From the NCBI GenBank assembly GCA_025363695.1, contig JANYDI010000058.1:1-43091 (forward strand): a DNA stretch of 43,091 nucleotides, in the 5' to 3' direction. The DNA is from Opitutia bacterium. Its GTDB lineage: Bacteria; Verrucomicrobiota; Verrucomicrobiia; Opitutales; JANYDI01. How positions within the stretch are numbered: position 1 is the stretch's first letter; each line of letters opens with the position of its first letter. Shown here piece by piece: positions 3,896 to 42,252 of this stretch. The notes under the pieces are model-generated. The model was not told the origin of the DNA. It made no database searches and saw only the letters and a list, made by a program, of their open reading frames with translations. The translations under genes and the position numbers were made by a program.

Positions 3896-4594
3896 ATGCC
3901 CGAACCCGAAGAAATAAAAACCTTGTTCCAGCGTATTGCCTGGCGTTATGACCGAGCTAACACGGTCCTAAGCCTAGGACTGCACCGTTACTGGCGTTGG
4001 CGAACAGCACGGGTGGTCAAGGCCCTCAAGCCCAAGGTCGTGCTGGATATGGCCACTGGGACGGGTGATTTAGCCTTTGCCCTTGAGCGACAACTCGGGA
4101 AAACCACAAGCATTATGGGTATGGACTTTTGCGAACCCATGTTGGCCTTGGCGCGTAAAAAACAAGGGAATTCCCCTATTCCGTTTACCCTAGGCGATTG
4201 CCTAAATATTCCCCTAGATGACGGCAGTATCGACGTGGTAACTATGGCCTTTGGCTTACGGAATATTCCCCAGCGCAATAAAGCGTTTTTGGAAATCCAC
4301 CGCGTATTACGTCCTGGAGGGTTTTTGGTCCTCCTGGAGTTCAGCCAACCCAGCCGCTGGTTTGCGCCGCTGTATTGGCCGTATTTACACGCTATTTTAC
4401 CCTGGCTCTCAGGCCTCCTTACGGGCCACCAGGAAGCATATCGCTATTTGGGCCGCAGTATTGAGGGCTTTTTAAGCAAAAAAGCCCTCAGTGATGAGCT
4501 GCGTAAGCACGGCTTTGAGCCAGTAAAGGCTGTTGGGCTGTCGGCCTCCGTTGTGGCTATTCATGTAGGAAAGAAAAGGGCCAAGGGGAGCTAG
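3896..4594 (+). CDS. ubiE: Demethylmenaquinone/ubiquinone C-methyltransferase (UbiE/MenG family)
   Basis: ATG at 3896 (MPEPEEIKTLFQRIAWRYDRAN) aligns with UbiE N-termini; the track ORF start at 3839 overlaps the upstream gene. SAM-binding motif VLDMATGTGD is present, and LRPGG and LEFS motifs match the family. The stop codon lies in the loop of a repeat hairpin. Confidence 0.85.
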   Translation: MPEPEEIKTLFQRIAWRYDRANTVLSLGLHRYWRWRTARVVKALKPKVVLDMATGTGDLAFALERQLGKTTSIMGMDFCEPMLALARKKQGNSPIPFTLGDCLNIPLDDGSIDVVTMAFGLRNIPQRNKAFLEIHRVLRPGGFLVLLEFSQPSRWFAPLYWPYLHAILPWLSGLLTGHQEAYRYLGRSIEGFLSKKALSDELRKHGFEPVKAVGLSASVVAIHVGKKRAKGS

Positions 4595-7607: not shown

Positions 7608-8699
7608 ATGAATAAACGCGTCACGATCAAAGACCTGGCCCAGGAAGTTGGATTAAGCCTTGGAGCCGTTTCTCAGGCCCTTAACCCTCGAGAAAGCACC
7701 ATTAAAGTACGCGAAGAAACAATACAGCGTGTCCAAGCTGCCGCCCGGAGAATGGGCTATAGGCCTCACGCAGGGGCTAGCTCGATTCGTTCCAAGCATT
7801 TCCAAAACATTGGGTACTTCATGGCCAGTACAGGCATTCCGGACTATGAACCTGTAGGCTATTCCATAGGACTCCATGATGCTGCGCTGGAACACAATTT
7901 TCGCGTCACCTTGATCCGCTTGCCTTCGGGCAAGTTCAAAAACGCCATCTCGCGCGTCTTCAGAGAAGCCCATCTAGACGCCATGGTCATGGTGAATGCC
8001 TCCATCCTTTTTTCGGAATACAAGGACATTCTCCAAACTTCAGATTTTCCAGTCATTTATTTAAACGATAAACAGGATAATAACTCTGTCTACACCGATG
8101 ATATTTTGGGTGCCAAGCGTGCCACAGAACACTTGATCCAGCGCGGTCATCGCAGTATTTATTTTGTCAAAATCAATAATGCTCCTGTAGTAGACCTACA
8201 TTACAGCATTGCCGATCGCATCCAGGGCTACACAGAAGCCATGCATACCGCAAAGCTCAAACCCGTCATCAAAGCCTACACCTACCCGCAACAAGAAGGC
8301 CCCTTGCTTGATGAGCTTTTTGGTCGCGATAAGCCTGAGGCCATTTTAGCTTATTGCGATGCGGATGCCGCCCAGCTCCTAAAGTTTGCTTATCACCAAG
8401 GCCTTCATGCCCCTGAAGACATCGCCATTATGGGCTATAACGACGATATCTTTTCACGCCACTGCTGGGTCACCCTGTCAACCATGCACATCCCCACCTA
8501 CGATATGGCCCAGGCTGCCTTCCGCATGGTTTTAGCTCAAATTGATGAAAATAGCAACGGCCCTACCGACTCCTGCGTCTTTGTCCCAGAACTCATCGTC
8601 CGCGCTTCTACGGAAAGGGAAAAGGAAACGGAAAAGGAGAAGGAAAGGGCCAAGGGGAGCGAGCTCCCCTTGGATCCCCTACAGGTAGCGATTTTGTGA
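7608..8699 (+). CDS. LacI/GalR family transcriptional regulator
   Basis: N-terminal HTH (VTIKDLAQEVGLSLGAVSQALN) plus a periplasmic-binding-protein-like sugar-binding core. The last ~30 aa (EREKETEKEKERAKGSELPLDPLQVAIL) are translated from a purine-rich tract and a type-1 repeat. Confidence 0.85.
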   Translation: MNKRVTIKDLAQEVGLSLGAVSQALNPRESTIKVREETIQRVQAAARRMGYRPHAGASSIRSKHFQNIGYFMASTGIPDYEPVGYSIGLHDAALEHNFRVTLIRLPSGKFKNAISRVFREAHLDAMVMVNASILFSEYKDILQTSDFPVIYLNDKQDNNSVYTDDILGAKRATEHLIQRGHRSIYFVKINNAPVVDLHYSIADRIQGYTEAMHTAKLKPVIKAYTYPQQEGPLLDELFGRDKPEAILAYCDADAAQLLKFAYHQGLHAPEDIAIMGYNDDIFSRHCWVTLSTMHIPTYDMAQAAFRMVLAQIDENSNGPTDSCVFVPELIVRASTEREKETEKEKERAKGSELPLDPLQVAIL

Positions 8700-11961: not shown

Positions 11962-13116
11962 ATGAAAACACCGATACGTAACCGTTTTAATCCGATAAAA
12001 AACCTTAACTTGCAAAATCTTGGGCAGTTGCTGGATGATTTTCACGCGGGCTACCTGCACCAGACTGCCCTTGTGTGGGAGGCTATCGAGCGCCGGGACG
12101 ACGTCCTGCAGGGGCTCGTGGCGAAGCGTAAAAAGTCCTTAGCGCGGCTGGACTGGGAAATCGTGTGCTTGGAGGACACGCCTGAGGCGCACGAGCACAA
12201 GGCGTGCTTGAACACGGCCTACCAGAACATCCATGTGGGTAATGCTTACGAGCAAAACGAACAAGGCGGCTTGCGCTTGATGTTGCATCAGATGATGGAT
12301 GCTGTGGGCAAGCGTTATGCGGTGCACAACTTGGTGGTTGAGAAAACCCGGGTTGAGGCGACCTTCGTCCCGCTTTGGTTTTTTGAAAACACCCATGGGC
12401 GCTTGCGCTACGCAGGGGATGACCCTGACAACAGCAGTCAAGCGCTTGAGCCTGGCCACTGGATCATTACTACTGGGGAAGGCCTGATGGAGTCCTCGTC
12501 GATCGCCTACTTGTTCAAGCACCTGCCGTTGCGGGATTGGCTGGTGTATTGCGAACGCAATGGCATGCCTGGCGTCAAAGGCGTTACGGATTTTGCTCCC
12601 GGCTCTCCTCAATGGGAAGCCGCCAAACAAGCTGTGGCGGATTTTGGGGCGGAATTCCATGCCCTCATGTCTCGCGGCACGGATATTGAGCCTATCGACC
12701 TATCCAGTAGCGCGCAATTGCCGTACCCGGCCCTTATTGATCGCATGGATCGCGCTATGATCGCCCTGTGGCGGGGTTCTGACCTGGGCACCTTGTCCCA
12801 CAAAGACGCCACGGGGGCCTCGCTCCAAGCCGATGAAACCGCCCTCATTCAGGAAACCGATGCTGCGCTCATCTCCGAAACCCTCAACCGTCAGCTGGAT
12901 CCCGTCATCCTCGAAAAGACCTTCGGGCCTCAAATCCCCAAAGCCCGCTTTCACTTAAAGCCTCGTGATTGCCGCGATCGCCTAGCCGATGCCCAGCTCT
13001 ACCAAGCCCTCCTCAACATGGGTCTAAACCTCTCACGCTCCGAAATCCTCAAGCGCTTCAGCCTCACCGAAGCCCAAGCCAAGGACACCCTAAGCGCCAA
13101 AAAGTATGAAAATTGA
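11962..13116 (+). CDS. Phage Mu gp29-like portal protein (DUF935 family), isolated and possibly C-terminally truncated
   Basis: 384 aa. LGQLLDDFHAGYL..ALVWEAIERRDDVLQGLVAKRKKSLARLDWEIV matches my memory of the conserved N-terminal DUF935 block. No other phage gene is adjacent. Confidence 0.6.
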   Translation: MKTPIRNRFNPIKNLNLQNLGQLLDDFHAGYLHQTALVWEAIERRDDVLQGLVAKRKKSLARLDWEIVCLEDTPEAHEHKACLNTAYQNIHVGNAYEQNEQGGLRLMLHQMMDAVGKRYAVHNLVVEKTRVEATFVPLWFFENTHGRLRYAGDDPDNSSQALEPGHWIITTGEGLMESSSIAYLFKHLPLRDWLVYCERNGMPGVKGVTDFAPGSPQWEAAKQAVADFGAEFHALMSRGTDIEPIDLSSSAQLPYPALIDRMDRAMIALWRGSDLGTLSHKDATGASLQADETALIQETDAALISETLNRQLDPVILEKTFGPQIPKARFHLKPRDCRDRLADAQLYQALLNMGLNLSRSEILKRFSLTEAQAKDTLSAKKYEN

Positions 13117-16373: not shown

Positions 16374-16847
16374 ATGGCTAAGACAAAAATTCTATTATTA
16401 GAGCCAGTAAGCAACCTTGGCGACGAGGGGCAATCCGTAGAGGTAAAAGCTGGCTATTTCCGTAATTTTCTAGGGCCTAAAGGCAAAGCGATTCCCCTAA
16501 CCCAGGGCAATCGTAAGCAAATCGAGGCCCTTCAAGCTCGGCGTCAGGAACGCAAAGCCAAGGAGCTCGGAGGAGCCCAGGCCATTGCCGCCCAGATAGA
16601 AGCCCTGCGCTTGGTCATTCGCGTCAAAACAGGCGACCAAGGCCGCATGTACGGTGCCGTTACCGCCGCGGAACTCAGCAAGGCCCTGGAGTCCGAGTCG
16701 GCCATTCACATCGATCGCAAGGACATTGCCCTGCACACGCCCATCAAGGCGCTCGGGCAACACACCACGAAGATCCGTCTGCACCCCGAGGTCAGCGCTC
16801 AGTTGCAATTCGAGATCGTTTCGGAGAATGCAGTAGTGGAAGTTTAG
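16374..16847 (+). CDS. rplI: 50S ribosomal protein L9
   Basis: ATG at 16374 (MAKTKILLLEPVSNLGDEGQSVEVKAGYFRNFL), the canonical L9 N-domain. The longer track ORF (16263) overlaps ssb. Confidence 0.9.
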   Translation: MAKTKILLLEPVSNLGDEGQSVEVKAGYFRNFLGPKGKAIPLTQGNRKQIEALQARRQERKAKELGGAQAIAAQIEALRLVIRVKTGDQGRMYGAVTAAELSKALESESAIHIDRKDIALHTPIKALGQHTTKIRLHPEVSAQLQFEIVSENAVVEV

Positions 16848-17160: not shown

Positions 17161-18537
17161 ATGACCCTAGAACATGAAACACCGGCAGCACCGGCGGGGC
17201 GTGTTTTGCCGCACGACGTTGTGGCGGAGCGTGCCCTGCTGGGGGCCTGCATCTTGGAGGGGGGACAGGAGATGCTGGCGCGCTGCATAGAGGCGCGCTT
17301 GGTCCCGGAGTCATTTTTGAAGGGGAGCCACCAGAGTGTTTATAAGGCCTTGGTAGCGCTTTATGACGTGGGGACGCCGATTGACGACATTACCTTGGCC
17401 AATCAGCTGCAAAAACAGGGGGATTTTGAACGCGTGGAGGGCCATGCGGGGATCAATGCCTTGACGCAGTGGATTGAGACGACGGGGCATGCTCCGTATT
17501 ATTTGCAAATTGTCCGGGATAAATACCTATTGCGGCGCTTGATTCGTACCGCTTCCAAGACGGTAGAAAATTGTTACAGTCAGCAAAATAGCCTAGAGCA
17601 TTTTTTGGAGGAGGTAGAGCAGGAATTTTTCAAAATCAGCGAAGATCGTATTTCGGAGAGCGCCAAGCACGTCAAGGATTCGGTCGACCAAGTCGTGAGC
17701 TTGGTTTATCAGCTGATTGAGCAAAAAAAGCCCAATCATGGGATTTTGAGCGGCTTCAAGGACCTGGACTCGATGACCTTTGGCTTTCATCCGCAGGAAA
17801 TGATCGTGTTGGCGGCGCGGCCTTCCGTGGGGAAAACAGCTTTTGCGATGAATCTAGCTGAAAACGTAGTGGTGCCGCCTGGGCAGCGGGTAAAGCCAGC
17901 AGCCACGCTTGTTTTTAGTTTGGAAATGAACACGGAGTCCTTGGCCATGCGCTTGCTTTCGAGCCATGCACGGATCAACATGAAGCGCATGCGCGATGGT
18001 TTTTTGAGCAATGAGGAAAAAACGGATATGCTCAAGGCCGCTAAACGCCTGAAAGAAGCGCCGTTGTGGATCGATGACTCAGGGGGGCTGAATATTTTGG
18101 AGCTTCGAGCCAAGGCGCGGCGTTTTAAGTCTCGGATGGATTTGGGCCTGATTATTATCGATTATTTGCAATTGATTTCAGGCACGGACAGCAGAACGCC
18201 GCGTGAGCAGCAAATATCCGAGATTTCACGAAGTATCAAGGCGATGGCTAAGGAGCTCAATGTCCCGATCGTCGTACTCAGCCAGCTCAACCGCGATTCT
18301 GAAAGAGAAAAACGCGAGCCCCGTCTTTCTGACTTGCGTGAATCCGGTTCCATCGAACAAGATGCCGATGTTGTCTGCATTCTGCATCGCGTCGGCAATG
18401 GATCCTCCGAGGAAACCCCCTCCGACGATCAATCCGAGCGCATCGATTTGGTCATTGCTAAGCAACGTAACGGCCCCACCGGAAAGGTAGGCCTCGTATT
18501 TAACAGGAATTATACGCGTTTTGAAAGTTTAGGCTAA
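17161..18537 (+). CDS. dnaB: Replicative DNA helicase DnaB
   Basis: ATG at 17161. Motifs: PHDVVAERALLG, Walker A ARPSVGKT, IIIDYLQL, SQLNR. The stop TAA (18535-18537) is the TAA inside the repeat tip GGCTAAGGGG. Confidence 0.95.
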   Translation: MTLEHETPAAPAGRVLPHDVVAERALLGACILEGGQEMLARCIEARLVPESFLKGSHQSVYKALVALYDVGTPIDDITLANQLQKQGDFERVEGHAGINALTQWIETTGHAPYYLQIVRDKYLLRRLIRTASKTVENCYSQQNSLEHFLEEVEQEFFKISEDRISESAKHVKDSVDQVVSLVYQLIEQKKPNHGILSGFKDLDSMTFGFHPQEMIVLAARPSVGKTAFAMNLAENVVVPPGQRVKPAATLVFSLEMNTESLAMRLLSSHARINMKRMRDGFLSNEEKTDMLKAAKRLKEAPLWIDDSGGLNILELRAKARRFKSRMDLGLIIIDYLQLISGTDSRTPREQQISEISRSIKAMAKELNVPIVVLSQLNRDSEREKREPRLSDLRESGSIEQDADVVCILHRVGNGSSEETPSDDQSERIDLVIAKQRNGPTGKVGLVFNRNYTRFESLG

Positions 18538-18820: not shown

Positions 18821-21166
18821 ATGTTACGCTTTATTTTAGGAATTCTGCTCCTTTGGAGTTCTGTTTTGGCAGCGCGGGTGGACTTGGCCTCGGCGGTGAT
18901 TGGCGAGGTCAAAACGGAATTTTTGGGCAAAGAGGCGGTGAGCAGGAGTTACTTGGAAAACATCATTCCGCTGACCAAGGGGCAGCCGTACACGGCTTCG
19001 GCGGTCAATGACGCCATCCAGATCCTGTATAATACGGACCATTTTGAAGCGATTCGGGTCCAGGAGGACAAAAAGGACGGCAAGGTGGACCTGACTTTTT
19101 TCCTGACTCCCGGCTACCGTCTTAGCGATGTCACGGTCGAGGGGGTGCGTGGGCTGCGACGCTCGGGCGTTTTGCGTCGTTTGGAAAGCAAGAAGGATAG
19201 CGTTTTGAGTGATTATCGGATACACAAGGACAAGCGTTCCATTTTAGAGTATTACAAAAAGAAGGGCTTTACGCGTGCTACCGTTGATGAGACTATTGTT
19301 TACAATGAGGCTCGTGGGACGGCTCAGATCCTTTATCAAATCCATGAAGGCAAGCGGGCGCGCGTTTCAAAAATTGTTTTCAAGGGCAATAAGCATATTA
19401 AATCAGATCTTTTGCGCAAAGAAATCCGTACTGAAAAACGTGGGTTGCTTTCCTTTTTAAAAGGTAAGGGGTTTTTTGATAAAGCGATTTTTGCCGAGGA
19501 TCTGAAGCGCTTGGAGCTTTTTTACCAAAATCAGGGTTACCTGGATGTGCGTTTCCCGGAAGAAACCCTGGATATTAAACGTTTTGATTCGGGCCAACAC
19601 TGCATTACTATTGGCGTGGAGGAGGGGCCCTGCTACCAGCTTCGGGACGTGACGCTTTCAGGGGCCCAGCTGTTTCGCAGCGATGAGCTCCTAAAGGTTA
19701 CGGCTTTGAAGCTGGGAGAGCCTTTCTCGCCCGAAAAAGTCGAAAAAGCTGAGGATAATATCCGCATGCATTATGGCCAAGATGGCTATCTGGATACCAA
19801 AATAGAGACGAAACGTTATGTCGATATCCAAAACAGGACGGTATCTTTGCATTTTTCCATCCAAGAAGGTCAGCGTAATTGGGTGAATTCCATCAACATA
19901 CAGGGAAATATGCTTACACGCGCTGTGGTGATTTTGAGGGAAATCACCCTACAGCCAGGCGATGTTTTTGACCTAAAACGCGTACGTGCCAGCGAAGGAC
20001 GTTTGCGAGCCACGGGTTTTTTCAAAGAAGTACACATTACGCCTGAAGCTACGGGGATAGAGGGCAAAAAAAATCTACATATAGCGTTAAAGGAAAACCG
20101 TTCCTCCTTGATTTCTTTGGGGGCTCGTGTGAATAGCTTGGATCGCCTGCAAGGCCAAATCGAGTTTGTTCAGCCCAGCTTTGATATCCGTAGTCCGAAG
20201 ACTAAGTTCCGTGGCGGTGGCCAAAAATTCCGCATCGGGGGCAATTTTGGGTCGAAATCGCATGATGTGTATCTGAATTTGGAGGAGCCTTGGCTGTTTG
20301 ATCGTCGTTTAGCTCTGGGTACGGAGCTCAGCCAGCATGCCAATAGTTACGATAGCGATTATTATGCTGAAAAACGCAATGCCGCGATGGTCTACTTGCG
20401 CAAACGCCTCTTTGAGCAAGTCAACGGAACTCTAAGCTATCAGCTGGAAAAGACTTCCATATCGGATGTAGACATTAACGCGCCCAAGCTGATTCGCGAC
20501 GAAGAGGGCCATCGCCTCGCCTCAAAAATGGCCTTTCAGTTGAGCCGCGATACCCGCAATTCCGTATTGCGCCCCACGCAAGGCAATCGCTGGGATGCTA
20601 TGACTCAGGTAGCTGGGGGTATTTTTGGCGGAGATACGGAATATTGGCGCAATGAGCTCAAGGGTATTCAATATTTTATGCTCAATCCGTACCGCAAGCA
20701 AACCGTCTCCCTGATGGGCCGCATCGGTACCGTGGCGCCCTTTGGAGAGGCCAATCGTGTGCCGTTTTTTGACCGCTATTTCCTGGGCGGCAGTAGCAGC
20801 TTACGCGGCTTCAGGCACCGAATGGTCAGCCCCAAAGAACTCGATAAAAACCCCAAAGAACCTAAGGGCCCGCTAATTCCCTTCTCCACAGGGGGTAATT
20901 CCTTCGGGGTAGTTACGGTGGAATACATGATCGACGTCATAGACCTGCTCAGCGTGGCCCTTTTTTACGATATCGGTTTTGTCAATGCCCAAGAATGGAC
21001 CTTTAACCCCGGCCACCCCAGCAGCGACTGGGGCTTTGGCCTCGTTATCCCCTTGATGGGCAGCGCTTTACGTCTAGACTTCGGCTTCCCTATCCAGGGC
21101 GACCAGTACCTCACGAAAAAGAATAAGAAGATGAACTTTGAGTTCTCATTTGGGCTGAGGTATTAA
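18821..21166 (+). CDS. bamA: Outer membrane protein assembly factor BamA (Omp85 family)
   Basis: ATG at 18821 with a signal peptide (MLRFILGILLLWSSVLAA). POTRA repeats are followed by a C-terminal beta-barrel ending in an aromatic residue (FSFGLRY). The upstream part of the track ORF is repeat-derived. Confidence 0.9.
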   Translation: MLRFILGILLLWSSVLAARVDLASAVIGEVKTEFLGKEAVSRSYLENIIPLTKGQPYTASAVNDAIQILYNTDHFEAIRVQEDKKDGKVDLTFFLTPGYRLSDVTVEGVRGLRRSGVLRRLESKKDSVLSDYRIHKDKRSILEYYKKKGFTRATVDETIVYNEARGTAQILYQIHEGKRARVSKIVFKGNKHIKSDLLRKEIRTEKRGLLSFLKGKGFFDKAIFAEDLKRLELFYQNQGYLDVRFPEETLDIKRFDSGQHCITIGVEEGPCYQLRDVTLSGAQLFRSDELLKVTALKLGEPFSPEKVEKAEDNIRMHYGQDGYLDTKIETKRYVDIQNRTVSLHFSIQEGQRNWVNSINIQGNMLTRAVVILREITLQPGDVFDLKRVRASEGRLRATGFFKEVHITPEATGIEGKKNLHIALKENRSSLISLGARVNSLDRLQGQIEFVQPSFDIRSPKTKFRGGGQKFRIGGNFGSKSHDVYLNLEEPWLFDRRLALGTELSQHANSYDSDYYAEKRNAAMVYLRKRLFEQVNGTLSYQLEKTSISDVDINAPKLIRDEEGHRLASKMAFQLSRDTRNSVLRPTQGNRWDAMTQVAGGIFGGDTEYWRNELKGIQYFMLNPYRKQTVSLMGRIGTVAPFGEANRVPFFDRYFLGGSSSLRGFRHRMVSPKELDKNPKEPKGPLIPFSTGGNSFGVVTVEYMIDVIDLLSVALFYDIGFVNAQEWTFNPGHPSSDWGFGLVIPLMGSALRLDFGFPIQGDQYLTKKNKKMNFEFSFGLRY

Positions 21167-21412
21167 GGGCAAGGGGCTAAGGGGCACTCGTGCCCCTTAG
21201 GATCCCCTTCCGATGGGCAATTTTTAAAATACTACGTATTTATAAAAATTGCCCATCGGGTAGGGCATGCTAAGGTCTTCGCCGATCGCAAAGCGATCTG
21301 TGGGGCGCCTTGTATCACCTTTTTCGGTAGCGATTTATCTAAAATGCGTCAGCATTTTAATAAATCGTTACCGATAGGGGATCCAAGGGGTGCGAGCACC
21401 CCTTGGCCCTTT
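21165..21412. repeat. Type-1 element, head-to-head double with a single central H3
   Basis: The tip is duplicated (AAGGGCAAGGGGCTAAGGGG). H1 21179-21198, H3 21284-21298 (AAA loop), H1' 21385-21404. Confidence 0.9.
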
Positions 21413-21439
21413 AAAACCTCTTGACCTATACAACGAACC

Positions 21440-24297: not shown

Positions 24298-25965
24298 ATG
24301 TTACGTGCGATGGAGTTGAAGCATTTTGGGCCTATCGAGGCGCTGAGCTTGGACCTGGAGCCCGGGTTTATCGCGGTCACGGGGGAGACAGGGGCGGGCA
24401 AAAGTGTACTCTTGGGGGCCTTACGTTTTTTGAGCGCGGATCGTGGTGGGCGCGTCGATAAGGCCTTGGTGTCTTCGCAAGCGCATCCGGCTTGGGCGCA
24501 GGCGGTCCTACAGCCCAATGCGGCAATGCTGGCCTTTTTGGAGGAGCAGGCTTTGCCTCTGGAGCCCGAGGGCTTGTGCGTGGCCCGCTCCTTATCGGCA
24601 AAGGGCGTATCCAAAGCTTATATCAATGGCCAGCCGGTGCCCATGACGCTCTTGCAGCAATTAGGAGCTTTATGGATAGATTTTCATGACCCCAGCGCGC
24701 CCATGCGTTGCTTGGACCCCAAGGAACAGCAGGGCTTACTGGATACCTTTGCGGGGATATCGGCTGCTGCCTATCAAGACGCTTATGCGGCCTTTTGTGC
24801 TACGCGTGCGCAGTACCAAACGCTCGTCCAAACCGTGCGCCTGGATGCAGAAGCCCTTAAACGCCTCAAGAAAACTCTCCAGTTGATGACCGGAATAGAC
24901 CTGAGTGACGCGGGCGTGGCCCATCTTGAGCAGCAGGCTGTTGGGCTGCAGCAGGCGCGGGTACGGCAGCAGGTTGCCTCGGAGCTCTACTACGTGTTGC
25001 AATCACAGGCCCTTGAGGCGTGCCGCAAGCAGGCCCTTGACTTGCGGGATGCTGGTAAGGACCCCCAAGTTCAGCCCCTTATGCAGCGTTTGGAGTCCTT
25101 GATGCTCGAGGTGGATGACTTTTCGCAGCAGGCTTATGCGCTCAGCAGGGCCTCAGAATGCCTCGAGGCGCCTTTTATCGAGGAACAACTGGAGCGCTGG
25201 TTTGCGCTCAAACACGCTCATGGAGGCACGGCTCAAGCGGTGCGCGAGAAAAAGGAAGCCCTGGAGCGCAGCATGGCCCTGCAGGATTCCTTAGACGGCA
25301 AGCTCCTGGAGCTGGAGTACCTTTTGCGCACGCAGGAAGCCGCAGCTCGGCACTTGGCCCAGGCGCTCTACGAGCAACGGCAGCAGGCTGCTGGGCGCTT
25401 TGAAAGCGCTATTGCCAAAAAATTGGCCGTTTTAGGACTCAATCAGGCCTACCTGCACGTGCATGTCATGCTTTCACAGGCCTTGATGCCCACAGGCCAA
25501 GACGCGGTGAGCTTCCATTTTGCGCCCAACCCTGGCCATCCAGCGCAGCCTTTGGAAAAAATCGCCTCCAGTGGCGAAAGTGCGCGTGTTTACTTGGCGC
25601 TTATCAGTGCTTTAACGTTAAAGGATGGCATTCCTGTCCTTGTTTTTGACGAAATTGACGCCCACGTAGGCGGCGAGGTCGCCCGTTGCGTCGGCCAAGA
25701 GCTAGCCCTCCTAGGCCAAGGCCGTCAGGTGTTTTGCATTACGCATTTACCCCAGGTAGCCGCTCAAGCCACGCAGCACTACTGCGTTACCAAGACTTAC
25801 GCTCAGGCAGCGACTCACATCCAGGTACTCGCCCTGCCACCCCATTCCCAAGAACGAAAAACCGAGCTAGCTCGCATGATCGGCGACCGCCACGGCCCCT
25901 CGGCGCTGCAACATGCGGGAGTGTTATTGGAAAGTAAAGGGCTAAGGGGCGCTTGCGCCCCTTAG
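24298..25965 (+). CDS. recN: DNA repair protein RecN
   Basis: ATG at 24298 (MLRAMELKHFGPIE), Walker A GETGAGKS, a long coiled-coil middle, and a C-terminal ASSGE..VLVFDEIDAHVGG signature/Walker B. The last ~10 aa (KGLRGACAP) are encoded by a repeat. Confidence 0.9.
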   Translation: MLRAMELKHFGPIEALSLDLEPGFIAVTGETGAGKSVLLGALRFLSADRGGRVDKALVSSQAHPAWAQAVLQPNAAMLAFLEEQALPLEPEGLCVARSLSAKGVSKAYINGQPVPMTLLQQLGALWIDFHDPSAPMRCLDPKEQQGLLDTFAGISAAAYQDAYAAFCATRAQYQTLVQTVRLDAEALKRLKKTLQLMTGIDLSDAGVAHLEQQAVGLQQARVRQQVASELYYVLQSQALEACRKQALDLRDAGKDPQVQPLMQRLESLMLEVDDFSQQAYALSRASECLEAPFIEEQLERWFALKHAHGGTAQAVREKKEALERSMALQDSLDGKLLELEYLLRTQEAAARHLAQALYEQRQQAAGRFESAIAKKLAVLGLNQAYLHVHVMLSQALMPTGQDAVSFHFAPNPGHPAQPLEKIASSGESARVYLALISALTLKDGIPVLVFDEIDAHVGGEVARCVGQELALLGQGRQVFCITHLPQVAAQATQHYCVTKTYAQAATHIQVLALPPHSQERKTELARMIGDRHGPSALQHAGVLLESKGLRGACAP

Positions 25966-26136: not shown

Positions 26137-26244
26137 GGGGGTAGCGGAGAAATTTTGGGTGCAGGCAAGGCGCTAAGCCCGACGTGTGCTTTTGCACTCG
26201 AGGGCTGCAGCAACGCAGCATCCACCCAAAAGACTCCGCTACCC
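26137..26244 (-). repeat. Type-2 hairpin element, alternative-core variant (CTGCAGCCCTCGAGTGCA core)
   Basis: Its reverse complement aligns along its whole length with 30114-30236. The outer stem is GGGGGTAGCGGAG...CTCCGCTACCC. Confidence 0.8.
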
Positions 26245-28497: not shown

Positions 28498-28768
28498 GGT
28501 TTTAGCGGGCTATTCTGGGTTGATGCTTCGTCATGGAAGTGACTCACGCACCGTAGTGCGCTACGCACTTCCCTTCCTTGCCTGAACCAAGAATAGCCCG
28601 CTAAAACCGGCTCAAAGCACGTCTTCCCAATTTCCCGGATCGCTTCGCGATCTGTGAGGGTCTTAGTATCCACCTACCCCGATAGCGATTTTGCCAAAAT
28701 ACGTAGTATTTTGCAAAATCGCTATCGGAAAGGGGATCCTAAGGGGCGCAAGCGCCCCTTGGCCCTTT
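28498..28768 (-). repeat. Composite: type-2 hairpin element + type-1 half
   Basis: Type-2 28498-28608, H3 28638-28652, H2 28679-28728, H1 28741-28760. Confidence 0.9.
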
Positions 28769-29752: not shown

Positions 29753-30127
29753 ATGACCGTTATGAAAAATCAAAACATTATTATACTGGGAGTGCATCTC
29801 CCCCTTACCGAGGCGATAAAGAACACGGTTCATGAAAAAGTACAGCGTTTATTTCATCATGAAGCCCGTATTCTTAGAATCAGAATCGAGCTGACTAAAG
29901 ATTCCTGCGAAAAACGCGAGGACAATTTCTGCGCCTGTGGTATTATTGAAATCAATGGCCCTAATTTGGTTGTGAAAGAAAAAAGTGGCGACCTTTACAA
30001 GTCCATAGACCGCATGGTGGATAAGCTGGACCGCAAACTCAACCAACGCGCTCGGCTTATCCGCGTGAAACGCCACTACCTACATCCCATAGATTTATCA
30101 TGCTCCCTCCCGAAGGTTGGGGTTTAG
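29753..30127 (+). CDS. hpf: Ribosome hibernation promoting factor / RaiA (short HPF, S30AE family)
   Basis: IIILGVHLPLTEAIKNTVHEKVQRL...DLYKSIDRMVDKLDRKLNQ matches the S30AE fold pattern. ATG at 29753, or alternatively 29762. The stop lies inside a type-2 hairpin element. Confidence 0.85.
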   Translation: MTVMKNQNIIILGVHLPLTEAIKNTVHEKVQRLFHHEARILRIRIELTKDSCEKREDNFCACGIIEINGPNLVVKEKSGDLYKSIDRMVDKLDRKLNQRARLIRVKRHYLHPIDLSCSLPKVGV

Positions 30128-30388
30128 CGGGTTATTTTGGGTTGATGCTGCGTCGCTGCAGCCCTCGAGTGCAGAAGCACACGTCGGGCTTAGCTCCTTG
30201 CCTGAACCCAAAATTCCTCCGCTAAACCCCAACCTTCCAAGGCAATTCAAAAAACATTCGATCGCGATACAATCTGTGGGGTGCCTTGTATACCTACTCC
30301 CGATAGCGATTTATCTAAAATGCGTTAGCATTTTAATAAATCGCTATCGGAAAGGGGATCCAAGGGGAGCAAGCTCCCCTTGGCCCTT
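30114..30388 (-). repeat. Composite: type-2 hairpin element (alternative core) + type-1 half
   Basis: Type-2 variant 30114-30236, degenerate H3 ~30259-30274, H2 30300-30350, H1 30362-30381. Confidence 0.85.
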
Positions 30389-32430: not shown

Positions 32431-33273
32431 ATGGAAAACCCCTACTGGGTGCACCATCTGGATCCTGTCGCTTTGGCTATAGGGTCCACCGGTTTGGCCA
32501 TTCGCTGGTATGGGCTGGCCTATTTTGTAGGCCTACTCAGTGCCGCGGCGCTCCTATCGCTTTACTACAAAAAGCAGCGCTCACCCCTAAATCCTGAACT
32601 TCAGGCGACTTACCTGACCACGGGCTTATTCGGAGTGCTCATCGGCGGACGCCTCGGCAGTGTCCTTTTTTATGGCCTGCCTCCTTTGGAGGCCCTCCAA
32701 ATCTGGAAGCCTGGCATGGCCAGCCATGGCGGTTTTGTGGGTGTCGCTTTGGGAACGCTTTATTTTTGCTGGAAATACAAGCAACCCTTTCTGAGCACGA
32801 GTGACATCATCTGCACACTTCCCAATGTCGGGTTTTTCCTGGGTCGCATCGCAAACTTCATCAACGGAGAACTCTGGGGCAAAGTAACGACGCTACGCTG
32901 GGCCGTGATCTTCCCTCATAGCCCTCTGCCACTTCAGCCCCGGCACCCCTCGCAGCTCTACGAAGCTGCCCTCGAAGGGCTGTTTATGCTCATTTATACC
33001 CAAATACGCTTTTGGCGCAGCAACGTCTGCAACCGCTATCCCGGGCAGCTCTCCGGAGAATTCCTCTGCCTCTATGCCCTCGCACGCATCCTGTGCGACT
33101 GCTTCCGCGAGCCCGACTCCGCAAGCATCCTTCACCTGCCCAGGGGTACCTTTTTGTCGCTTATTTTGCTGGGATTCGGGGTGGGCGTAGTGGTGGTAAG
33201 TAGGGGTAGGGCTAAGTTTAAGGCCAAGGGGCGCTTGCGCCCCTTAGGATCCCCTACGGGTAGCGATTTTTAA
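32431..33273 (+). CDS. lgt: Prolipoprotein diacylglyceryl transferase
   Basis: IRWYGLAYFVG, GGRLG, GMASHGG, GRIANFINGELWG and HPSQLYEA motifs. The last ~26 aa (..SRGRAKFKAKGRLRPLGSPTGSDF) are translated from a purine-rich tract plus a type-1 repeat. Confidence 0.9.
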   Translation: MENPYWVHHLDPVALAIGSTGLAIRWYGLAYFVGLLSAAALLSLYYKKQRSPLNPELQATYLTTGLFGVLIGGRLGSVLFYGLPPLEALQIWKPGMASHGGFVGVALGTLYFCWKYKQPFLSTSDIICTLPNVGFFLGRIANFINGELWGKVTTLRWAVIFPHSPLPLQPRHPSQLYEAALEGLFMLIYTQIRFWRSNVCNRYPGQLSGEFLCLYALARILCDCFREPDSASILHLPRGTFLSLILLGFGVGVVVVSRGRAKFKAKGRLRPLGSPTGSDF

Positions 33274-33521
33274 AAATGCAAAGCATTTTGTAAAAATCGC
33301 TACCCGGTAGCATATACTAAGGCCCCCACAGATCGCGAAGCGATCCGAGTGTATCTTATGAATTGCTTCGAGCCGGTTTTAGGGGAGGCATTGGGGGTTC
33401 AGGCAAGGAAGGGAAGTGCGTAGCGCACTTAAGGTGCGTGAGTCACTTCCATTCCGCAGCATCAACCCCCAATGTGCCCCTAAAACCATCCTAAGGGGAG
33501 CGAGTGCCCCCTTAGCCCTTT
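33220..33521 (+). repeat. Composite: type-1 half + type-2 hairpin element + inverted terminal H1
   Basis: H1 33225-33244, H2 33257-33306, H3 33331-33345, type-2 33375-33487, H1' 33493-33513. Confidence 0.9.
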
Positions 33522-33526
33522 ATACC

Positions 33527-34210
33527 TTATAGCCGCACCAAACTGCCACTCGTTGCTTGGCTTTCAGCACAGGCCAAAAAGTACACCCAGTGGGCGACCT
33601 GCTCGGGGCTGCCCATGGGGCCCTCGAAGGGACCCCTATTCAGGGCCTTCAGGATGCGTTGGGTCAACGGCGTATCGATGGTTCCGGGGCACACGGCGTT
33701 GACACGGATGCCTTTGCCCGTTAAATCTAGCGCAAGGGACTGCGTCATCATCGCAATGGCGCCTTTGCTCGTGGCATAGGCAGCGCTTTGAGCACGGGGC
33801 GCGAAGGATTGGTCGGACCCGATCAGCACTATGCTCCCGCTGCCTTGTCGGAGCATCCAAGGGACGCCGTGCTTAAGCGTGAGGAAAACGCCTTTGACAT
33901 TGACCTCCAAAATCCGGTCAAAAGTTTTTTCCGAAACCTCCCAAAGCGTCCCCAGTTCATGGATCCCCGCACAAGGGCACAGCACATCCAGGCGTCCAAA
34001 GCGCGCCACCGTAGCCTCCAAAGCCGCTGCGACCGCAGCGCTGTCCGTAGTATCCCCCAAAAAATGCTGCACGCGCTCCTCCCCAACAAAGGCCGTCGCC
34101 ACCTGCTGGTCAAAAAGACCGACCTTATAGCCTTTTTCCAAAAATAACGCCACGCAGGCCCGGCCTATGCCTTGCGCGCCTCCAGTAATGAAAAGAACAG
34201 GATTGTGCAT
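33527..34210 (-). CDS. SDR-family oxidoreductase (short-chain dehydrogenase/reductase)
   Basis: ATG at 34210 (MHNPVLFITGGAQGIGRA), with YATSKGA catalytic motif. The longer track ORF (to 34264) starts inside a repeat. Confidence 0.85.
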   Translation of the reverse strand: MHNPVLFITGGAQGIGRACVALFLEKGYKVGLFDQQVATAFVGEERVQHFLGDTTDSAAVAAALEATVARFGRLDVLCPCAGIHELGTLWEVSEKTFDRILEVNVKGVFLTLKHGVPWMLRQGSGSIVLIGSDQSFAPRAQSAAYATSKGAIAMMTQSLALDLTGKGIRVNAVCPGTIDTPLTQRILKALNRGPFEGPMGSPEQVAHWVYFLACAESQATSGSLVRL

Positions 34211-34247: not shown

Positions 34248-34505
34248 AAAGGGCTAAGGGGCACTTGTGCCCCTTAGGATCCCCTCCGATGGGCAATTTT
34301 TAAAATACTACGTATTTATAAAAATTGCCCATCGGGGAGGGTGATACTAAGGTCTCCCTCGATCGCGAAGCGATCCGGGGGGGTCCTTGTATAGGCTTCC
34401 CGATAGCGATTTATCTAAAATGCGCTAGCATTGGGATGCTAAAGCATTTTAATAAATCGCTATCGGAAAGGGGATCCAAGGGGAGCTTGCTCCCCTTGGC
34501 CCTTT
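34248..34505. repeat. Type-1 element, head-to-head double with a single central H3
   Basis: H1 34256-34275, H3 34361-34375, H1' 34478-34497. The right H2 carries a ~16-nt internal stutter (GCTAGCATTGGGATGCTAAAGCATT). Confidence 0.9.
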
Positions 34506-36208: not shown

Positions 36209-36317
36209 GTTTTAGGGGGGCATTGGGGCTTCGGACAAGGAAGTGAAGTGCGTAGCGCACTACGGTGCGTGAGTCACTTCAATGACGCCGTCCCAAACCC
36301 CAATGCCCCCCTAAAAC
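36209..36317 (+). repeat. Type-2 hairpin element (GAAGTGCGTAGCGCAC core)
   Basis: Outer stem AGTTTTAGGGGGGCATTGGGG / CCCCAATGCCCCCCTAAAACT. The core is identical to the copies at 4727, 28498 and 33375. It overlaps the stop of the OppB-like gene. Confidence 0.85.
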
Positions 36318-37238
36318 TCACTGCAATTTTTGAGATGGGTTCAACCAGGCTTGAAGGATATCCACACACAGATTAAACCCCACAACCGCCACGGCGTAGA
36401 CGATGACGGTGCCCATAATAAGCGTATAGTCTCGGTTAAAGGCAGAGGTCACATAAAATAAGCCCAAACCCGGGATGTTAAAAATCGTTTCGGTCACAAA
36501 GGAACCACTAACCATGGCCGCTGCAATCGGGCCCATAACGTTGAGGGCCGGACCCAGACTCCCACGCAGCCCATGGACCAGAAAAATCCGCAGCTCTCCC
36601 AGCCCTTTAGCTCGGGCCGTACGGATATAATCTTGTGATCGCGCCCGCACCAGGCTGGTACGGATAAATTTCGCTGCATAAGCGGCATAAAAAAACCCCA
36701 AGCTCAAGGCCGGCAAGACACGATCTCCCAGGCTATGCCACCCTGAGGCATGAAACCCATTCAGCTTGATGGCAAATACCAAAATCAATAAGGGCCCCGT
36801 AACAAAGGTCGGCAGGCACATCCCCAGCGTCGTCGCCCCCACCCCCACTTTGTCCCAGTAACCACCAGGGTTAAGCGCTCCCATAAGCCCCGCAAGCACC
36901 CCCAGGCCCATAGCCACACACAGCGACCAAAGCGTCAACTCCAAACTCACAGGCAAAGTCTCCTTGATGATAGTATTCACCCGTGTGGCCGGATAACGGA
37001 AGGACAGCCCCAAGTCCCCCTCCAAAACCAAGTGTTTGAGGAAGTACGCATACTGCACATACGTAGGCTGATCCAAGCGATAATGCCGCTCAAGGCTCTC
37101 CTTCATGCCCTCAGGTAAGGCACGCTCGCTATCAAAGGGCCCCCCAGGCGCCAAACGCGTCATAAAAAATACAAGCGTCACGACCCCCAGCAAAACCGGA
37201 ATCGACTGCGCCACACGTTTGAGAATAAAGGTAAGCAT
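36318..37238 (-). CDS. ABC transporter permease, OppB/DppB (peptide/nickel) family; no partner genes adjacent
   Basis: MLTFILKRVAQSIPVLLGVVTLVFFM is the canonical OppB/DppB N-terminus, and an EAA-loop region is present (YIRTARAKGL). Repeats flank it on both sides. Confidence 0.85.
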   Translation of the reverse strand: MLTFILKRVAQSIPVLLGVVTLVFFMTRLAPGGPFDSERALPEGMKESLERHYRLDQPTYVQYAYFLKHLVLEGDLGLSFRYPATRVNTIIKETLPVSLELTLWSLCVAMGLGVLAGLMGALNPGGYWDKVGVGATTLGMCLPTFVTGPLLILVFAIKLNGFHASGWHSLGDRVLPALSLGFFYAAYAAKFIRTSLVRARSQDYIRTARAKGLGELRIFLVHGLRGSLGPALNVMGPIAAAMVSGSFVTETIFNIPGLGLFYVTSAFNRDYTLIMGTVIVYAVAVVGFNLCVDILQAWLNPSQKLQ

Positions 37239-38956: not shown

Positions 38957-39117
38957 GATCGCGAAGCGATCTGTGCCGCCTTCGCCAAGGCTTCGGCGCG
39001 CCCATGGGAGGCCCTTGTATCACCCTTCTTGATAGGCGATTTTTATAAAATGCATCGCATTTTTAAAAATCGCCTATCAATAGGGGATCCAAGGGGAGCT
39101 GGCTCCCCTTGGCCTTC
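38957..39117 (-). repeat. Type-1 element, half copy carrying a ~32-nt nested insertion
   Basis: H3 38957-38971, inserted mini-hairpin module 38976-39007, H2 39029-39080, H1 39091-39110. Overlaps the murJ 3' end. Confidence 0.85.
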
Positions 39118-40609
39118 CTTTCCCCTTCCCAACCCCCACGCCGTACACGCCAACGCCGAGTGGGATAAGCACGACGAGGGCGCCTAGGAGGCTGAGCTTG
39201 GAGGGGGGCAGCAGGTGGGCCCAGAGCTTCCAGCTGGCGTAGGTGATGACGCCCATGAGGAGGGCTTGGAGCCAGAGTCGGGCCTGCAGGGCGCTCAGGG
39301 GGTGGATCTGAGGGTTTTTTTTGCACAGCGCCAGGTGTAGGGCGACGGACTGAAATAGCGCACTGAGCAGGTTGGCAGCGGCCAGGCCGGAGGTTTTAAA
39401 CCCGGGTAAAAGTAGGAGGCTCAGTAGGACATGTAGGATAAGTGTCATGACAGCCATGCGAGCGGGCAGACGCGCTTCGTGGAGGGCATGCAGGGTGCGC
39501 GTGGCCAGCAGGCTCATAGAATAAAAGGGAATACTCGCCGCATAGAGGCATAAGGGCCCTTGGGCGATGAGGGGGTTGGAAAATTTACCCCATTGGAAGA
39601 GCCCCAGCAAAATGGGCTCACTAAGGGCAATGAGCCCCAAAGCCGCTGGAATACTGATCCCCAATGAGTAACGCAGGCCTTGGGTGTAGGTGTGGGCAAG
39701 GCCGTGGACATCGTCTTTGGCGGCTTGGTCGGAAAGGCGAGGGAACAACACGCTGACAATGGCGCTGCTAAAAACACCCAAAGGAAACTCAATAAGGCGA
39801 TTGGCTAGGTACAAAACGGCCGTAGCGCTTGGGTCAATACCAAAGGCCAAAAAGCGCGAAAACACACTATTGAGCTGCAAAATACTGGCACCCCAAAGCC
39901 CAGGGATAAAACGTTTTTTCCAGTTTTTAAGCGCCTCAGAGCCTCCCCAGTCGATTCTGAAGCAAAAGTGCTCCTGCTTGCAAGCCCAAACGAGCATGCC
40001 CAGCTGCACCATGCCGCCCACAAGGACGCCTGCACACAGGATCCAAGCGCGTTTGGGGCCGTTATCGCACGCAAACCCGGCTCCCAGCGCGAAAATCATC
40101 GCCAAATTAAGCGCTATGGGTGAAAACGCCGCCCAACCAAAGCGCTGCCGTACGTTCAAAGCCGCACTGAGTGCCGCCGCCAGGCATATCAGCCACAAAT
40201 ACGGCATCAGCACCAGGCCCATATCGGCAGCCCAGTACCAGCGCTCGCTCAAGCCCGGAATATAACGTACACAAAGCAGTCCGGGCATCACGACTCCCAG
40301 GGTCCCCAAAATCAGGATACTCAGCCGTGTCAGTACTTGATTAAAGAATCTATTAAGCGTGGCTTGGCAGTCTTTTTGCGCCTCCGCTGCCAAGCTCGGG
40401 ATCAACGCAGACGTCAGCGCCCCCTCACCCAGTAGGCGTCTAAACAGGTTCGGAAGCGTAAAGGCCAGCAAAAATGCCGAGTTGAGCCCGCTAGCCCCCA
40501 GCGAGGCAAACAGCAGGCTGTCCCGCAGCAGCCCCAGGATCCGCGACCCCAGGGTCAACCCCGAAATGAGCGACACAGGCCTTATGAAGGTCGATTGTTT
40601 AAAAGACAT
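39077..40609 (-). CDS. murJ: Lipid II flippase MurJ (MviN family)
   Basis: 510-aa polytopic protein. The N-terminus SLISGLTLGSRILGLLRD..LFASLGAS is canonical MurJ. The last ~20 aa (KGKGRPRGASSPWIPY) are translated from a type-1 repeat. Confidence 0.85.
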   Translation of the reverse strand: MSFKQSTFIRPVSLISGLTLGSRILGLLRDSLLFASLGASGLNSAFLLAFTLPNLFRRLLGEGALTSALIPSLAAEAQKDCQATLNRFFNQVLTRLSILILGTLGVVMPGLLCVRYIPGLSERWYWAADMGLVLMPYLWLICLAAALSAALNVRQRFGWAAFSPIALNLAMIFALGAGFACDNGPKRAWILCAGVLVGGMVQLGMLVWACKQEHFCFRIDWGGSEALKNWKKRFIPGLWGASILQLNSVFSRFLAFGIDPSATAVLYLANRLIEFPLGVFSSAIVSVLFPRLSDQAAKDDVHGLAHTYTQGLRYSLGISIPAALGLIALSEPILLGLFQWGKFSNPLIAQGPLCLYAASIPFYSMSLLATRTLHALHEARLPARMAVMTLILHVLLSLLLLPGFKTSGLAAANLLSALFQSVALHLALCKKNPQIHPLSALQARLWLQALLMGVITYASWKLWAHLLPPSKLSLLGALVVLIPLGVGVYGVGVGKGKGRPRGASSPWIPY

Positions 40610-40628
40610 AGGAAGTGAAGGGAAGTTT

Positions 40629-40871
40629 AAGGGCCAAGGGGAGCTAGCTCCCCTTGGATCCCCTTTCCGATGGGCGATTTTCTAAAATGCTGGCGCATTT
40701 TAGGAAAATCGCCCATCGGCTTAGATGGATACAAGGCGCCATCCTGATCGCTTCGCGATCGTGGGGGGGCTTAGTATATGCTTATCGATAGCGATTTATC
40801 TAAAATGCGCTAGCATTTTAATAAATCGCTATCGAAAGGGGATCCTAAGGGGCACGAGTGCCCCTTAGCCC
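40629..40871. repeat. Type-1 element, head-to-head double with a single central H3
   Basis: H1 40636-40655, H3 40746-40760, H1' 40847-40866. Lies between the murJ start and the hisS end. Confidence 0.9.
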
Positions 40872-42141
40872 TTAGCCATTCTACCACTACATCCTCCTTC
40901 ACCACTTCGCTGTGGCCGTTCCGTAAATCCTTGGCCACGAGGCCTTCGGGGCTGACGGTGAGGGCGTGGTGGGCGCCTACGTGCTGGGCTTGTTCGAGTT
41001 GCTTGTTGAGGCTGGTGGGCTTAAGGGTGCCCTGGACTTGCAGGCCATGGCGACGGAGTTGTTGGGTGAGGCGCAGGGCTTGTGGGCGTAGCGATTCCTC
41101 GGTAATGGCGATGAACACTGCCGCCTGGGGGGCTTGCGCAGGCAGACAGTTATGGGCTTGGAGGCAGTCCTGGAGCGTGACATCGCCCATGGCAAAGCCA
41201 GCGGCTGGGAGCTGGGGCCCGCCTAGTTTTTCGACCAAGGTATCATAACGGCCACCACCGGCTAAGGCGCGTCCTTGGCCACTGCGTTCAAAGGCTTCGT
41301 AGACAAAACCGGTATAATAAGCAAGTCCTCGGACAATGCCCAAATCGATCGTAATAAAGGGAAGCAGCTCCATGGCTTCCAGTTGGGCCATGAGGACCTT
41401 CCAGTCCTCCAGGCGGCTAATCAAGGGCTCATGGTGCTTGTTGGTGTTTAAAAAGGCTTCAATGGCTTGTAGGCTGCGCAGACTACTGAGGTGATCGATA
41501 GCTTGTAGGAGTTTTTCACCTTCAAGATGTAGGGCTTCTAGCTTTGCAATGACCTGCTGGGCTGCTTCCCGTTCGCGCTTGTCAATAATATTCAGGACGG
41601 CAAAAAGCTGCTCTTGCGGGACTCCCCAGCTGCTCAGCGCCTGTAGCCACAAAGTTCGGTCGCTCAGGCGGATATGGACCTGTTGCTCGGTGAGGCCAAA
41701 GTTCTGAAACGTAGTGATCATCAGGGCTATGAGCTCCGCATCGGCTCCAGGACCGGCTTCTCCCAGGATATCGGCATTGAATTGATAAAAGGCTCGCAAA
41801 CGCCCTTTTTGCGGGCGTTCGTAGCGGTAGCACTCACCCACGTTAAACCACTTGATGGGCCGCTTCAAAGCCGCTGCCTTTGCTCCCACCATCGCCGCCA
41901 AAGAGGGCGTCAGCTCTGGCCTCAACGCGATAGCCCGACCGCCTTTGTCCTGGAAACAAAAGAGCTGGTCGACGACTTCCTGGCCGGATTTTTCGATATA
42001 TAATTCGAGCGGTTCCAATGTGGGCGCCTCATAAGGCTGAAAAGCAAAGGCCTTGGCCGTTCGCCGCCACGTATCAAAAATGTTATCACGTAACGCGCAT
42101 TCCTGTGGAAAAAATTGCCGAAACCCTGGTAGTGTCCCCAT
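40810..42141 (-). CDS. hisS: Histidine--tRNA ligase
   Basis: Class II aaRS motifs (LRPELTPS, YRYERPQKGRLRAF, GGGRYD) plus a C-terminal anticodon-binding domain. The last ~20 aa (RAKGHSCPLGSPFDSDLLKC) are repeat-encoded. Confidence 0.9.
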   Translation of the reverse strand: MGTLPGFRQFFPQECALRDNIFDTWRRTAKAFAFQPYEAPTLEPLELYIEKSGQEVVDQLFCFQDKGGRAIALRPELTPSLAAMVGAKAAALKRPIKWFNVGECYRYERPQKGRLRAFYQFNADILGEAGPGADAELIALMITTFQNFGLTEQQVHIRLSDRTLWLQALSSWGVPQEQLFAVLNIIDKREREAAQQVIAKLEALHLEGEKLLQAIDHLSSLRSLQAIEAFLNTNKHHEPLISRLEDWKVLMAQLEAMELLPFITIDLGIVRGLAYYTGFVYEAFERSGQGRALAGGGRYDTLVEKLGGPQLPAAGFAMGDVTLQDCLQAHNCLPAQAPQAAVFIAITEESLRPQALRLTQQLRRHGLQVQGTLKPTSLNKQLEQAQHVGAHHALTVSPEGLVAKDLRNGHSEVVKEDVVVEWLRAKGHSCPLGSPFDSDLLKC

Positions 42142-42204: not shown

Positions 42205-42252
42205 AAAGGGAAAGGGAAAGGGAAAGGGAAAGGGAAAGGGAAAGGGAAAGGG
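42205..42252. repeat. Perfect hexanucleotide microsatellite (AAAGGG)x8 fused to the tip of a type-1 element
   Basis: Counted by hand: eight uninterrupted AAAGGG units running into H1 (42248-42267). Located ~65-110 nt upstream of the hisS start codon. Confidence 0.9.

Follow-up and report, generated by a model that had tools for sequence, protein, structure and literature searches.

Almost half of the genes in the small genome of an uncultured Opitutia-like member of the Verrucomicrobiota end inside repeat DNA, which supplies their stop codons and in many cases is predicted to append short C-terminal tails to the encoded proteins. The window, i.e. the whole stretch of DNA analysed here, is 43,091 nucleotides (nt) long and corresponds to contig JANYDI010000058.1 (C30) of a 1.28-Mb metagenome-assembled genome (MAG; GCA_025363695.1), which comprises 180 contigs, is ~81% complete and has a G+C content of 51%. 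The exemplar is the end of the lgt gene, the last 25 codons and TAA of which (33196..33273, + strand) are read from a palindromic repeat that we term type 1. Genes were called genome-wide with our own heuristic, which uses a hexamer model and gave 900 complete 3' ends; repeat DNA was marked by blastn self-coverage with thresholds of at least five and at least 50 copies, and the identities of the genes in the window were confirmed with NCBIfam and Pfam profiles. The whole stop codon lies in DNA repeated at least five times in 409 of the 900 genes (45%) and in DNA repeated at least 50 times in 262 of them; among high-confidence genes the stop falls in a repeat of at least five copies in 363/694 cases (52%). 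The closest matches to the host GpmI come from Opitutia and other Verrucomicrobiota with a best identity of 60%, and the best homologue of its Lgt in a search among 5.8 billion proteins is 54% identical. Hence, with nearest proteins at or below 60% identity for GpmI and at ~54% for Lgt, the lineage is one without a close sequenced relative.

Self-comparison of the genome recovered three main repeat families, namely types 1, 2 and 3. From the outside inwards a type-1 element consists of a C-poor, purine-rich arm of ~10-40 nt, a tip with the consensus TAAAGGGCY, the GC hairpin H1 (AAGGGG-N8-CCCCTT), a linker (RGGATCCCCT), the long AT-rich hairpin H2, a segment X and the central hairpin H3 (GATCGCGAAGCGATC). 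A full copy is a ~250-nt palindrome with an H1 at each end, the units ranging from 140 to 250 nt, and half copies as well as composites with type-2 elements are also present. The inverted termini of full copies, each made up of H1, tip and arm (e.g. 18527-18775, 21170-21415 and 40625-40875), are terminal inverted repeats as seen in miniature inverted-repeat transposable elements (MITEs). The genome contains 534 exact H1 cores with a predicted fold of about -17 kcal/mol, and the inner three pairs of the stem are complementary in 97% of the copies across seven stem variants, indicating covariation. Sequence found five or more times accounts for 17% of the assembly and for 66% of the non-coding DNA in it; intergenic gaps with repeats have a median length of 312 nt, with just 15 nt of unique sequence. 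Neither type 1 nor type 2 matches any family in Rfam, where the only matches are those of Acido-Lenti-1 to type-3 hairpins; further, none of 40 genomes from the same order contains the element and its H1-linker pattern has no match in the metagenome contigs of JGI. The type-1 repeat thus appears to be a lineage-private family of multi-hairpin palindromes.

The element at the end of lgt is a half copy (33192..33346, + strand) with its arm at 33192-33216, the tip TTTAAGGCC at 33217-33225 and H1 at 33226-33245, followed by the linker AGGATCCCCTAC, the AT-rich H2 at 33258-33306 and H3 at 33332-33346. The reading frame passes through the arm, tip and H1 into the first arm of H2, where the TAA at 33271-33273 closes the tail AKFKAKGRLRPLGSPTGSDF. 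Beyond it, at 33375..33529 on the minus strand, lies a composite in which a type-2 element (33375-33487) precedes an inverted H1' (33493-33513) with its tip and arm; this last arm holds the TAA (33527-33529) of a minus-strand gene for a protein of the short-chain dehydrogenase/reductase (SDR) family.

The lgt tail is found in none of the 14 Lgt homologues compared (identity no higher than 55%), and the family profile TIGR00544 ends at residue 261 of the 280-residue protein. A comparable picture emerges for other proteins, with curated NCBIfam profiles being complete up to the junction in 27 genes, i.e. 20 in the window and seven on other contigs (GyrA, a P-type ATPase, ThrRS, IspG, ClpC, SppA and YidC). 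Eleven GpmI orthologues stop mostly two to four, and at most six, residues past the conserved ..SLI, where the host protein adds KGQGEQAPLGSPFR; nine RecN orthologues stop within ~5 residues of the conserved ..ELL and two others ~12 residues later. In the case of HisS, 0 of 40 orthologues from the same order align past residue 432 of 443, and the 20 element-encoded residues stand in for ~5-15 native C-terminal residues, placing the junction inside the ancestral gene. Across GpmI, Lgt, HisS and RecN this comparison positions the ancestral stop 0-15 codons beyond the junction. These complete profiles and tailless orthologues bear out a preliminary description of the window, in which the tails had been taken as acquired rather than ancestral. 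They are derived from repeat DNA.

The same description had listed 14 genes of the window with repeat-borne ends, and had proposed that the elements concentrate at the extreme 3' ends of genes and that insertions are enriched at stop codons. On re-inspection of the sequence all 14 ends are as described, with the stop in or against a repeat (that of the OppB gene being borderline), and the list proved to be an understatement: 21 of the 33 gene 3' ends in the window are associated with repeats, the seven additional stops being those at 78, 5664, 13114, 14903, 16845, 33527 and 9356, the last of which is only adjacent to a repeat. Genome-wide, repeats near a 3' end overlap the stop codon in 424 of 546 cases, as against 111 of 386 at 5' ends, even with the longest possible start taken for each gene (Fisher p=4e-51); just 122 other genes are followed, within 400 nt, by a repeat that does not reach into the stop codon. 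The stop is in a repeat in about two thirds of the genes with a downstream gap above 150 nt (253/386) versus 4/269 of those with a gap of 60 nt or less, and in 131 of the 188 genes that have no other gene after them on the contig. The 3' preference is equally apparent from gene orientation, with repeats occupying 93% of convergent gaps longer than 60 nt (92/99), 71% of tandem ones (174/245) and 38% of divergent ones (42/110), and from the H1 ends themselves, 284 of which face a gene 3' end versus 177 a gene 5' end (p=7e-7), with 27 facing no gene.

The tails so generated are 4.3 codons long at the median and 15 at the 90th percentile, reach ~30 at most, and are enriched in G, K, R and E. Their mutual resemblance had been ascribed to alternative frames of the same DNA, and this holds across the genome: ...RGA(C/S)AP* ends 32 proteins and PLGSP recurs in 17. 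Among the stop codons in repeats TAG is enriched and TGA depleted (p=1e-8).

To locate the stops within the element we numbered their positions relative to H1. At the 284 3'-facing H1 ends the stop lies at or inside the conserved part in 56%, is scattered in the arm in 39% and is farther upstream in 5%, with peaks at -9, -8, -7, -1 and +19; 72 of 112 arm stops are well inside the arm and not at its edge. In composition, the tip T-A-A-A and the C-poor arm do not differ between the 3'-facing, the 177 start-facing and the 27 gene-free H1 ends, and a stop triplet occurs at -9 in 34% of the 5'-facing and 31% of the 3'-facing ends. Given that ends which do not meet a gene 3' end share both this composition and this frequency, the stops belong to the element. 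The TAA at -9 together with the T/A variant of H1, which provides TAA at -1 and TAG at +19, offers a stop in all three frames within 30 nt, and H2 contributes further ones (GATAG, TAA, TGA). In control copies, which do not face a gene 3' end, 86% of the frames encounter a stop within 70 nt of H1; no H1 is found more than ~70 nt inside any called gene and no internal copy is read through.

On top of this built-in property, selection for short tails is visible in two features. The frame actually used stops at a median position of -1, with 46% of the stops at the tip, versus a median of +19 and 14% at the tip for the unused frames of the same copies (p=7e-14), and the stop-bearing T/A variant of H1 is present at 56% of the 3'-facing versus 38% of the 5'-facing ends (p=5e-4). 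The arm is also shorter where a reading frame enters the core, its median length being 15 nt there as against 24 nt at ends that face gene starts (p=5e-11) and 6 nt in coding DNA taken at random.

The reading that we favor, with a probability of roughly 0.6, is that these gene ends arose by deletion following colonization. As their distribution shows, the repeats colonized the 3' flanks of genes much like repetitive extragenic palindromic (REP) sequences, after which deletions in the shrinking genome probably removed the native stop, the unique spacer and part of the arm. The conserved part of the protein is now continuous with the element, and its ancestral stop and in some cases its last native codons have been lost. 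Such losses would be tolerated as the element has stop triplets in all three frames, the first in-frame one of which is expected to end translation, leaving tails of 0-30 residues that recur between unrelated proteins; thereafter, selection may have favored those copies and frames with an early stop. The near-absence of unique spacer, the loss of native codons in HisS and the shortened arms together point to deletions that fused the coding sequence to the interior of the element. Several considerations weigh against this scenario. There is no close relative, given the 54% identity of Lgt and the absence of the element from the 40 same-order genomes and the JGI contigs, and hence no empty site for comparison, so that the choice between deletion and direct insertion depends on indirect arguments. 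The arm boundaries are fuzzy and the gene calls come from our own heuristic; selection for a leader, instead of trimming at 3' ends, could explain why arms are longer at 5'-facing ends; the tails are predicted translations of open frames; and the genome is a fragmented MAG (180 contigs, 81% complete).

A different view, which could coexist with deletion after colonization but which we consider somewhat unlikely as the explanation, is that the host keeps the element as an adaptive module punctuating its gene ends, in which a three-frame stop is combined with a hairpin acting in transcription termination, mRNA stability or translation attenuation, the tails being a tolerated by-product. The maintenance of the H1 stem by covariation fits this proposal, as do the strong 3'-end bias, the enrichment of the stop-bearing H1 variant at 3'-facing ends, the resemblance of the outward-read H1 to an intrinsic terminator and the virtual absence of native intergenic DNA. 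Conservation of the hairpin, however, is equally expected if mobility depends on it; 177 of the H1 ends are oriented towards gene starts; and in a scan for promoters and terminators the counts of matches were not clearly higher than in shuffled sequences, with terminator-like sites only ~1.5 standard deviations above expectation. A precedent is provided by Escherichia coli, where, according to the summary in PMC5082802 of Liang, Rudd and Deutscher (2015), REPs within 15 nt of a stop codon stall ribosomes, trigger trans-translation and regulate translation. Similarly, the stable H1 encloses the stop or starts no more than ~15 nt after it in ~170 genes of the present genome, which also encodes a tmRNA, and by analogy the stalling of ribosomes would be a likely side effect in these genes under the favored reading too. 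A difference from the situation here is that the E. coli REP, as far as that summary goes, follows the native stop and does not supply it.

An even more far-reaching proposal, which we deem unlikely, would have the element as a standardized gene-end cassette upon which the genome depends, having taken the place, in roughly one gene out of two, of the stop, the leader downstream and the terminator or RNA-stabilizing hairpin, and with the hairpin on the stop tuning termination or tmRNA tagging genome-wide. That selection keeps it is argued from the covariation in the H1 stem and from the excess of stop-bearing variants at 3' ends.

Finally, the elements might have been placed by targeted insertion, with the mobilizing enzyme putting them at or into stop codons, specifically the TA of TAA or TAG as the preliminary description had suggested, or into the last codons, such that the junctions are primary and no deletion took place. 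A TA is present at -9/-8 in 43-58% of the copies; the tip stops are used in frame more often than the one third expected (22/46 at -9, 23/35 at -8 and 17/22 at -7); and in RecN and GpmI the junction is no more than ~3 codons away from the ancestral stop. On the other hand, this TA looks like a part of the consensus, the ends of the arms are too fuzzy to define flanks, and the tip TAAA is as frequent at ends that face gene starts or no gene. Moreover, relative to H1 the stops are spread evenly over the three frames (80/104/100, p=0.17), 39% of the stops are scattered inside arms, and the HisS junction falls short of the ancestral gene end by 5-15 codons. The arms are inverted-symmetric, making them look like a part of the element and not a target duplication, and no displaced native 3' fragment was found on the far side of the elements; for instance, the arm alone lies between the hisS element and the start of murJ. 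We accordingly regard insertion into the TA of stop codons as unsupported and targeted insertion in general as quite improbable. That the fusions are artefacts of repeat-induced misassembly or wrong gene calls is very improbable, for while the MAG is fragmented and its contigs end in repeats (131/188 contig-last genes stop in one), the junctions join unique coding DNA to the first 10-60 nt of an element, within the length of a read, recur at hundreds of independent genes with copy-specific sequences, and are validated up to the junction by curated profiles in 27 genes.

The supply of stops and short tails by repeats is already known from REPs, from the QMITEs of Coxiella and from the Rickettsia palindromic elements (RPEs); it is the scale here that is exceptional. 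RPEs, reportedly described by Ogata and colleagues in 2000, are said to be palindromic selfish repeats translated within housekeeping proteins. Their copies lie within genes, where they keep the reading frame open. The parallel drawn earlier between them and the present elements is therefore loose: in both instances repeat DNA becomes, here by prediction, a part of the protein, but no internal read-through copy exists here and, with stops in all frames, the elements only cap genes. A closer counterpart is seen in Coxiella burnetii, where QMITE1 and QMITE2 extend 1-50 bp into the 3' ends of functional genes and confer a stop or up to 16 residues on about a dozen genes, in addition to a 33-residue extension of EnhC; the affected genes include ubiB, pntAA, mutT, nagZ, recN and enhC, and no known gene is affected at its 5' end (Wachter et al. 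2018, PMC5896051). Type-1 elements likewise overlap 3' ends and provide stops and short tails, but their sequences are unrelated to the QMITEs, and ~400 genes and 17% of the genome are involved, unlike the dozen or so genes and 0.9% of the genome in Coxiella.

REPs and REPINs go with RAYT transposases, an association reportedly treated by Bertels and Rainey in 2011. In a manner reminiscent of REP/RAYT systems, our host genome encodes a Y1 (RAYT-like) transposase (PF01797, 109 bits, ~149 aa; contig C149:1572-2020, minus strand), the sole one detected in a search confined to the Y1 family. In contrast to RAYT/REPIN loci its gene is embedded in a type-3 element with Acido-Lenti-1 arms and is not flanked by type-1 modules; within C149:1434-2140 it takes up the center of that element, between Acido-Lenti-1-type hairpin arms with the sequences ..CCACACTTAAGGAGGCCTGAAGGGCCGGCAGAT.. 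/ ..GAGCCCTACAGGGGCG.. on its two sides. This arrangement suggests that the type-3 "MITEs" are REP/IS200-like partners of the Y1 transposase, rather than IS5-type elements. REPs tagged with GTAG or CGTC prefer unidirectional and convergent gaps, adjoin or overlap coding regions and often furnish the TAG of the flanking reading frame through their termini, and Opitutus terrae, from the same class as our host, is rich in them (Di Nocera et al. 2013, PMC3733652). Like these, type-1 repeats favor convergent and tandem gaps, and in many copies H2 starts with GGTAG, GATAG or GATGG, the G(G/A)TAG forms giving TAG stops. They differ in that the H1 tip is without a GTAG/CGTC tag, in that the unit is a multi-hairpin composite of 140-250 nt with purine-rich arms, compared with the 20-40 nt of a REP palindrome, and in affecting ~45% of genes, which is far above what Di Nocera et al. 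(2013) and, reportedly, Bertels and Rainey (2011) describe.

The genome may hence be viewed as an extreme case in which ~45% of the genes end in repeat DNA and the proteome carries recurrent junk C-termini. With so many independent junctions, selection on C-terminal extensions becomes measurable, and the same set would permit testing of the effect of hairpins at stop codons on termination. It also calls for caution in annotation and in homology-based studies of C-termini in repeat-rich MAGs.

A few properties of the type-1 element deserve mention in their own right. Examples of H1 ends that face gene starts are those at 5935-5963, 11926-11961, 17130-17161 and 21405-21439, where the start codons are mostly 20-50 nt past H1. 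The leader at these ends consists of the arm's pyrimidine-rich complement (CCCTTTxCTTTCC..), and neither unique promoter DNA nor an obvious Shine-Dalgarno sequence is present. H1 read outward and followed by GGCCCTTT(A/T) scored as resembling an intrinsic terminator (17109-17140, 18740-18775, 25942-25965 and others); read inward from the gene it is followed by GGATCCCC and was not so scored. GATC palindromes are conserved in all type-1 copies, namely GGATCC in the H1-H2 linker (33247-33252 in the lgt element) and GATCGC..GCGATC in H3 (33332-33346), and these could be sites of methylation or protein binding. The arm of one H1 is a perfect (GAAAGG)n microsatellite of ~8 units (42205-42250), and the arms in general look like slippage-prone expansions of an AAGGG motif. 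An interpretation of arm and H1 as a triplex-forming structure of the BoxC/PIT-like kind was dropped upon inspection by eye, the tip being a direct repeat of the stem and not a mirror repeat.

The remaining repeat-terminated genes of the window illustrate the different places at which the element can intercept a reading frame. On the plus strand, ubiE (4577..4594) acquires the tail RAKGS and ends with a TAG (4592-4594) in the H1 loop, the profile TIGR01934 being matched over 223/223 positions up to residue 246 of 251. The gene of the LacI family (8613..8699) traverses arm, H1 and H2 to a TGA (8697-8699) in H2, which gives it a ~26-aa tail; 87 nt at the end of its coding sequence are repeat DNA and the profiles end at residues 337-347 of 363. 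The stop of dnaB (18535..18537) is the TAA of GGCTAAGGGG at -1 relative to H1, with TIGR00665 reaching residue 468 of 469, and that of bamA (21164..21166) is a TAA in the arm 15 nt before H1, such that the native C-terminal aromatic residue (..GLRY) is retained. The tail of recN (25936..25965) is KGLRGACAP, with the TAG (25963-25965) at H1 +19 and the profile matched over 562/563 positions to residue 558 of 568.

Its near-twin KGPRGACAP ends the SYLF/Ysc84 protein, encoded on the minus strand (28739..28768), again with a TAG at H1 +19. Also on the minus strand, the gene of the FkbM family (30344..30385; tail GQGELAPLGSPFR) and gpmI (34460..34504) both use the TAG in the CGATAG of H2, TIGR01307 being matched in the latter over 504/504 positions to residue 514 of 528. 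Two further minus-strand genes are murJ (39077..39118; tail GRPRGASSPWIPY), with its TGA between H1 and H2, and hisS (40810..40872; tail RAKGHSCPLGSPFDSDLLKC), with a TAG in H2. Type-2 elements act in the same way at three genes: the end of hpf and its TAG (30109..30127, + strand, TAG at 30125-30127) are within the terminus of one such element, the TAG of a 505-aa gene (26239..26241, - strand) is the last triplet of a type-2-like element (26142-26241), and in the borderline case of OppB the TGA (36318..36320, - strand) abuts the end of a type-2 element (36209-36317) without adding a tail.

Among the cases added in this study, rplI, encoding ribosomal protein L9, ends with a TAG in the arm 22 nt before H1 (16845..16847, + strand), which results in a 6-aa tail past the 148/148 match to TIGR00158 at residue 188 of 194. 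In another, a TAA (78..80, - strand) in the arm, 10-12 nt outside H1 (49-68), closes a single open reading frame (78-1472, - strand) in which a metal ABC transporter permease (residues 45-310) is apparently fused to an MntR/DtxR-type repressor domain (residues 328-463). A third ends with a TGA in the outer part of a type-1 arm, 25 nt before H1 (13114..13116, + strand); this gene (11962-13116) encodes a Mu-type phage portal protein (PF06074, 188 bits) and is solitary in the reduced genome. A tRNA gene (7396-7468, - strand; Rfam RF00005, 61 bits) accounts for the repeat-free 237-nt gap that follows the gene ending at 7370. Lastly, two tandem genes at 1704-3858 encode leucine-rich-repeat proteins; they contain internal repeats of 72 nt and are 82% identical over their first 300 nt.

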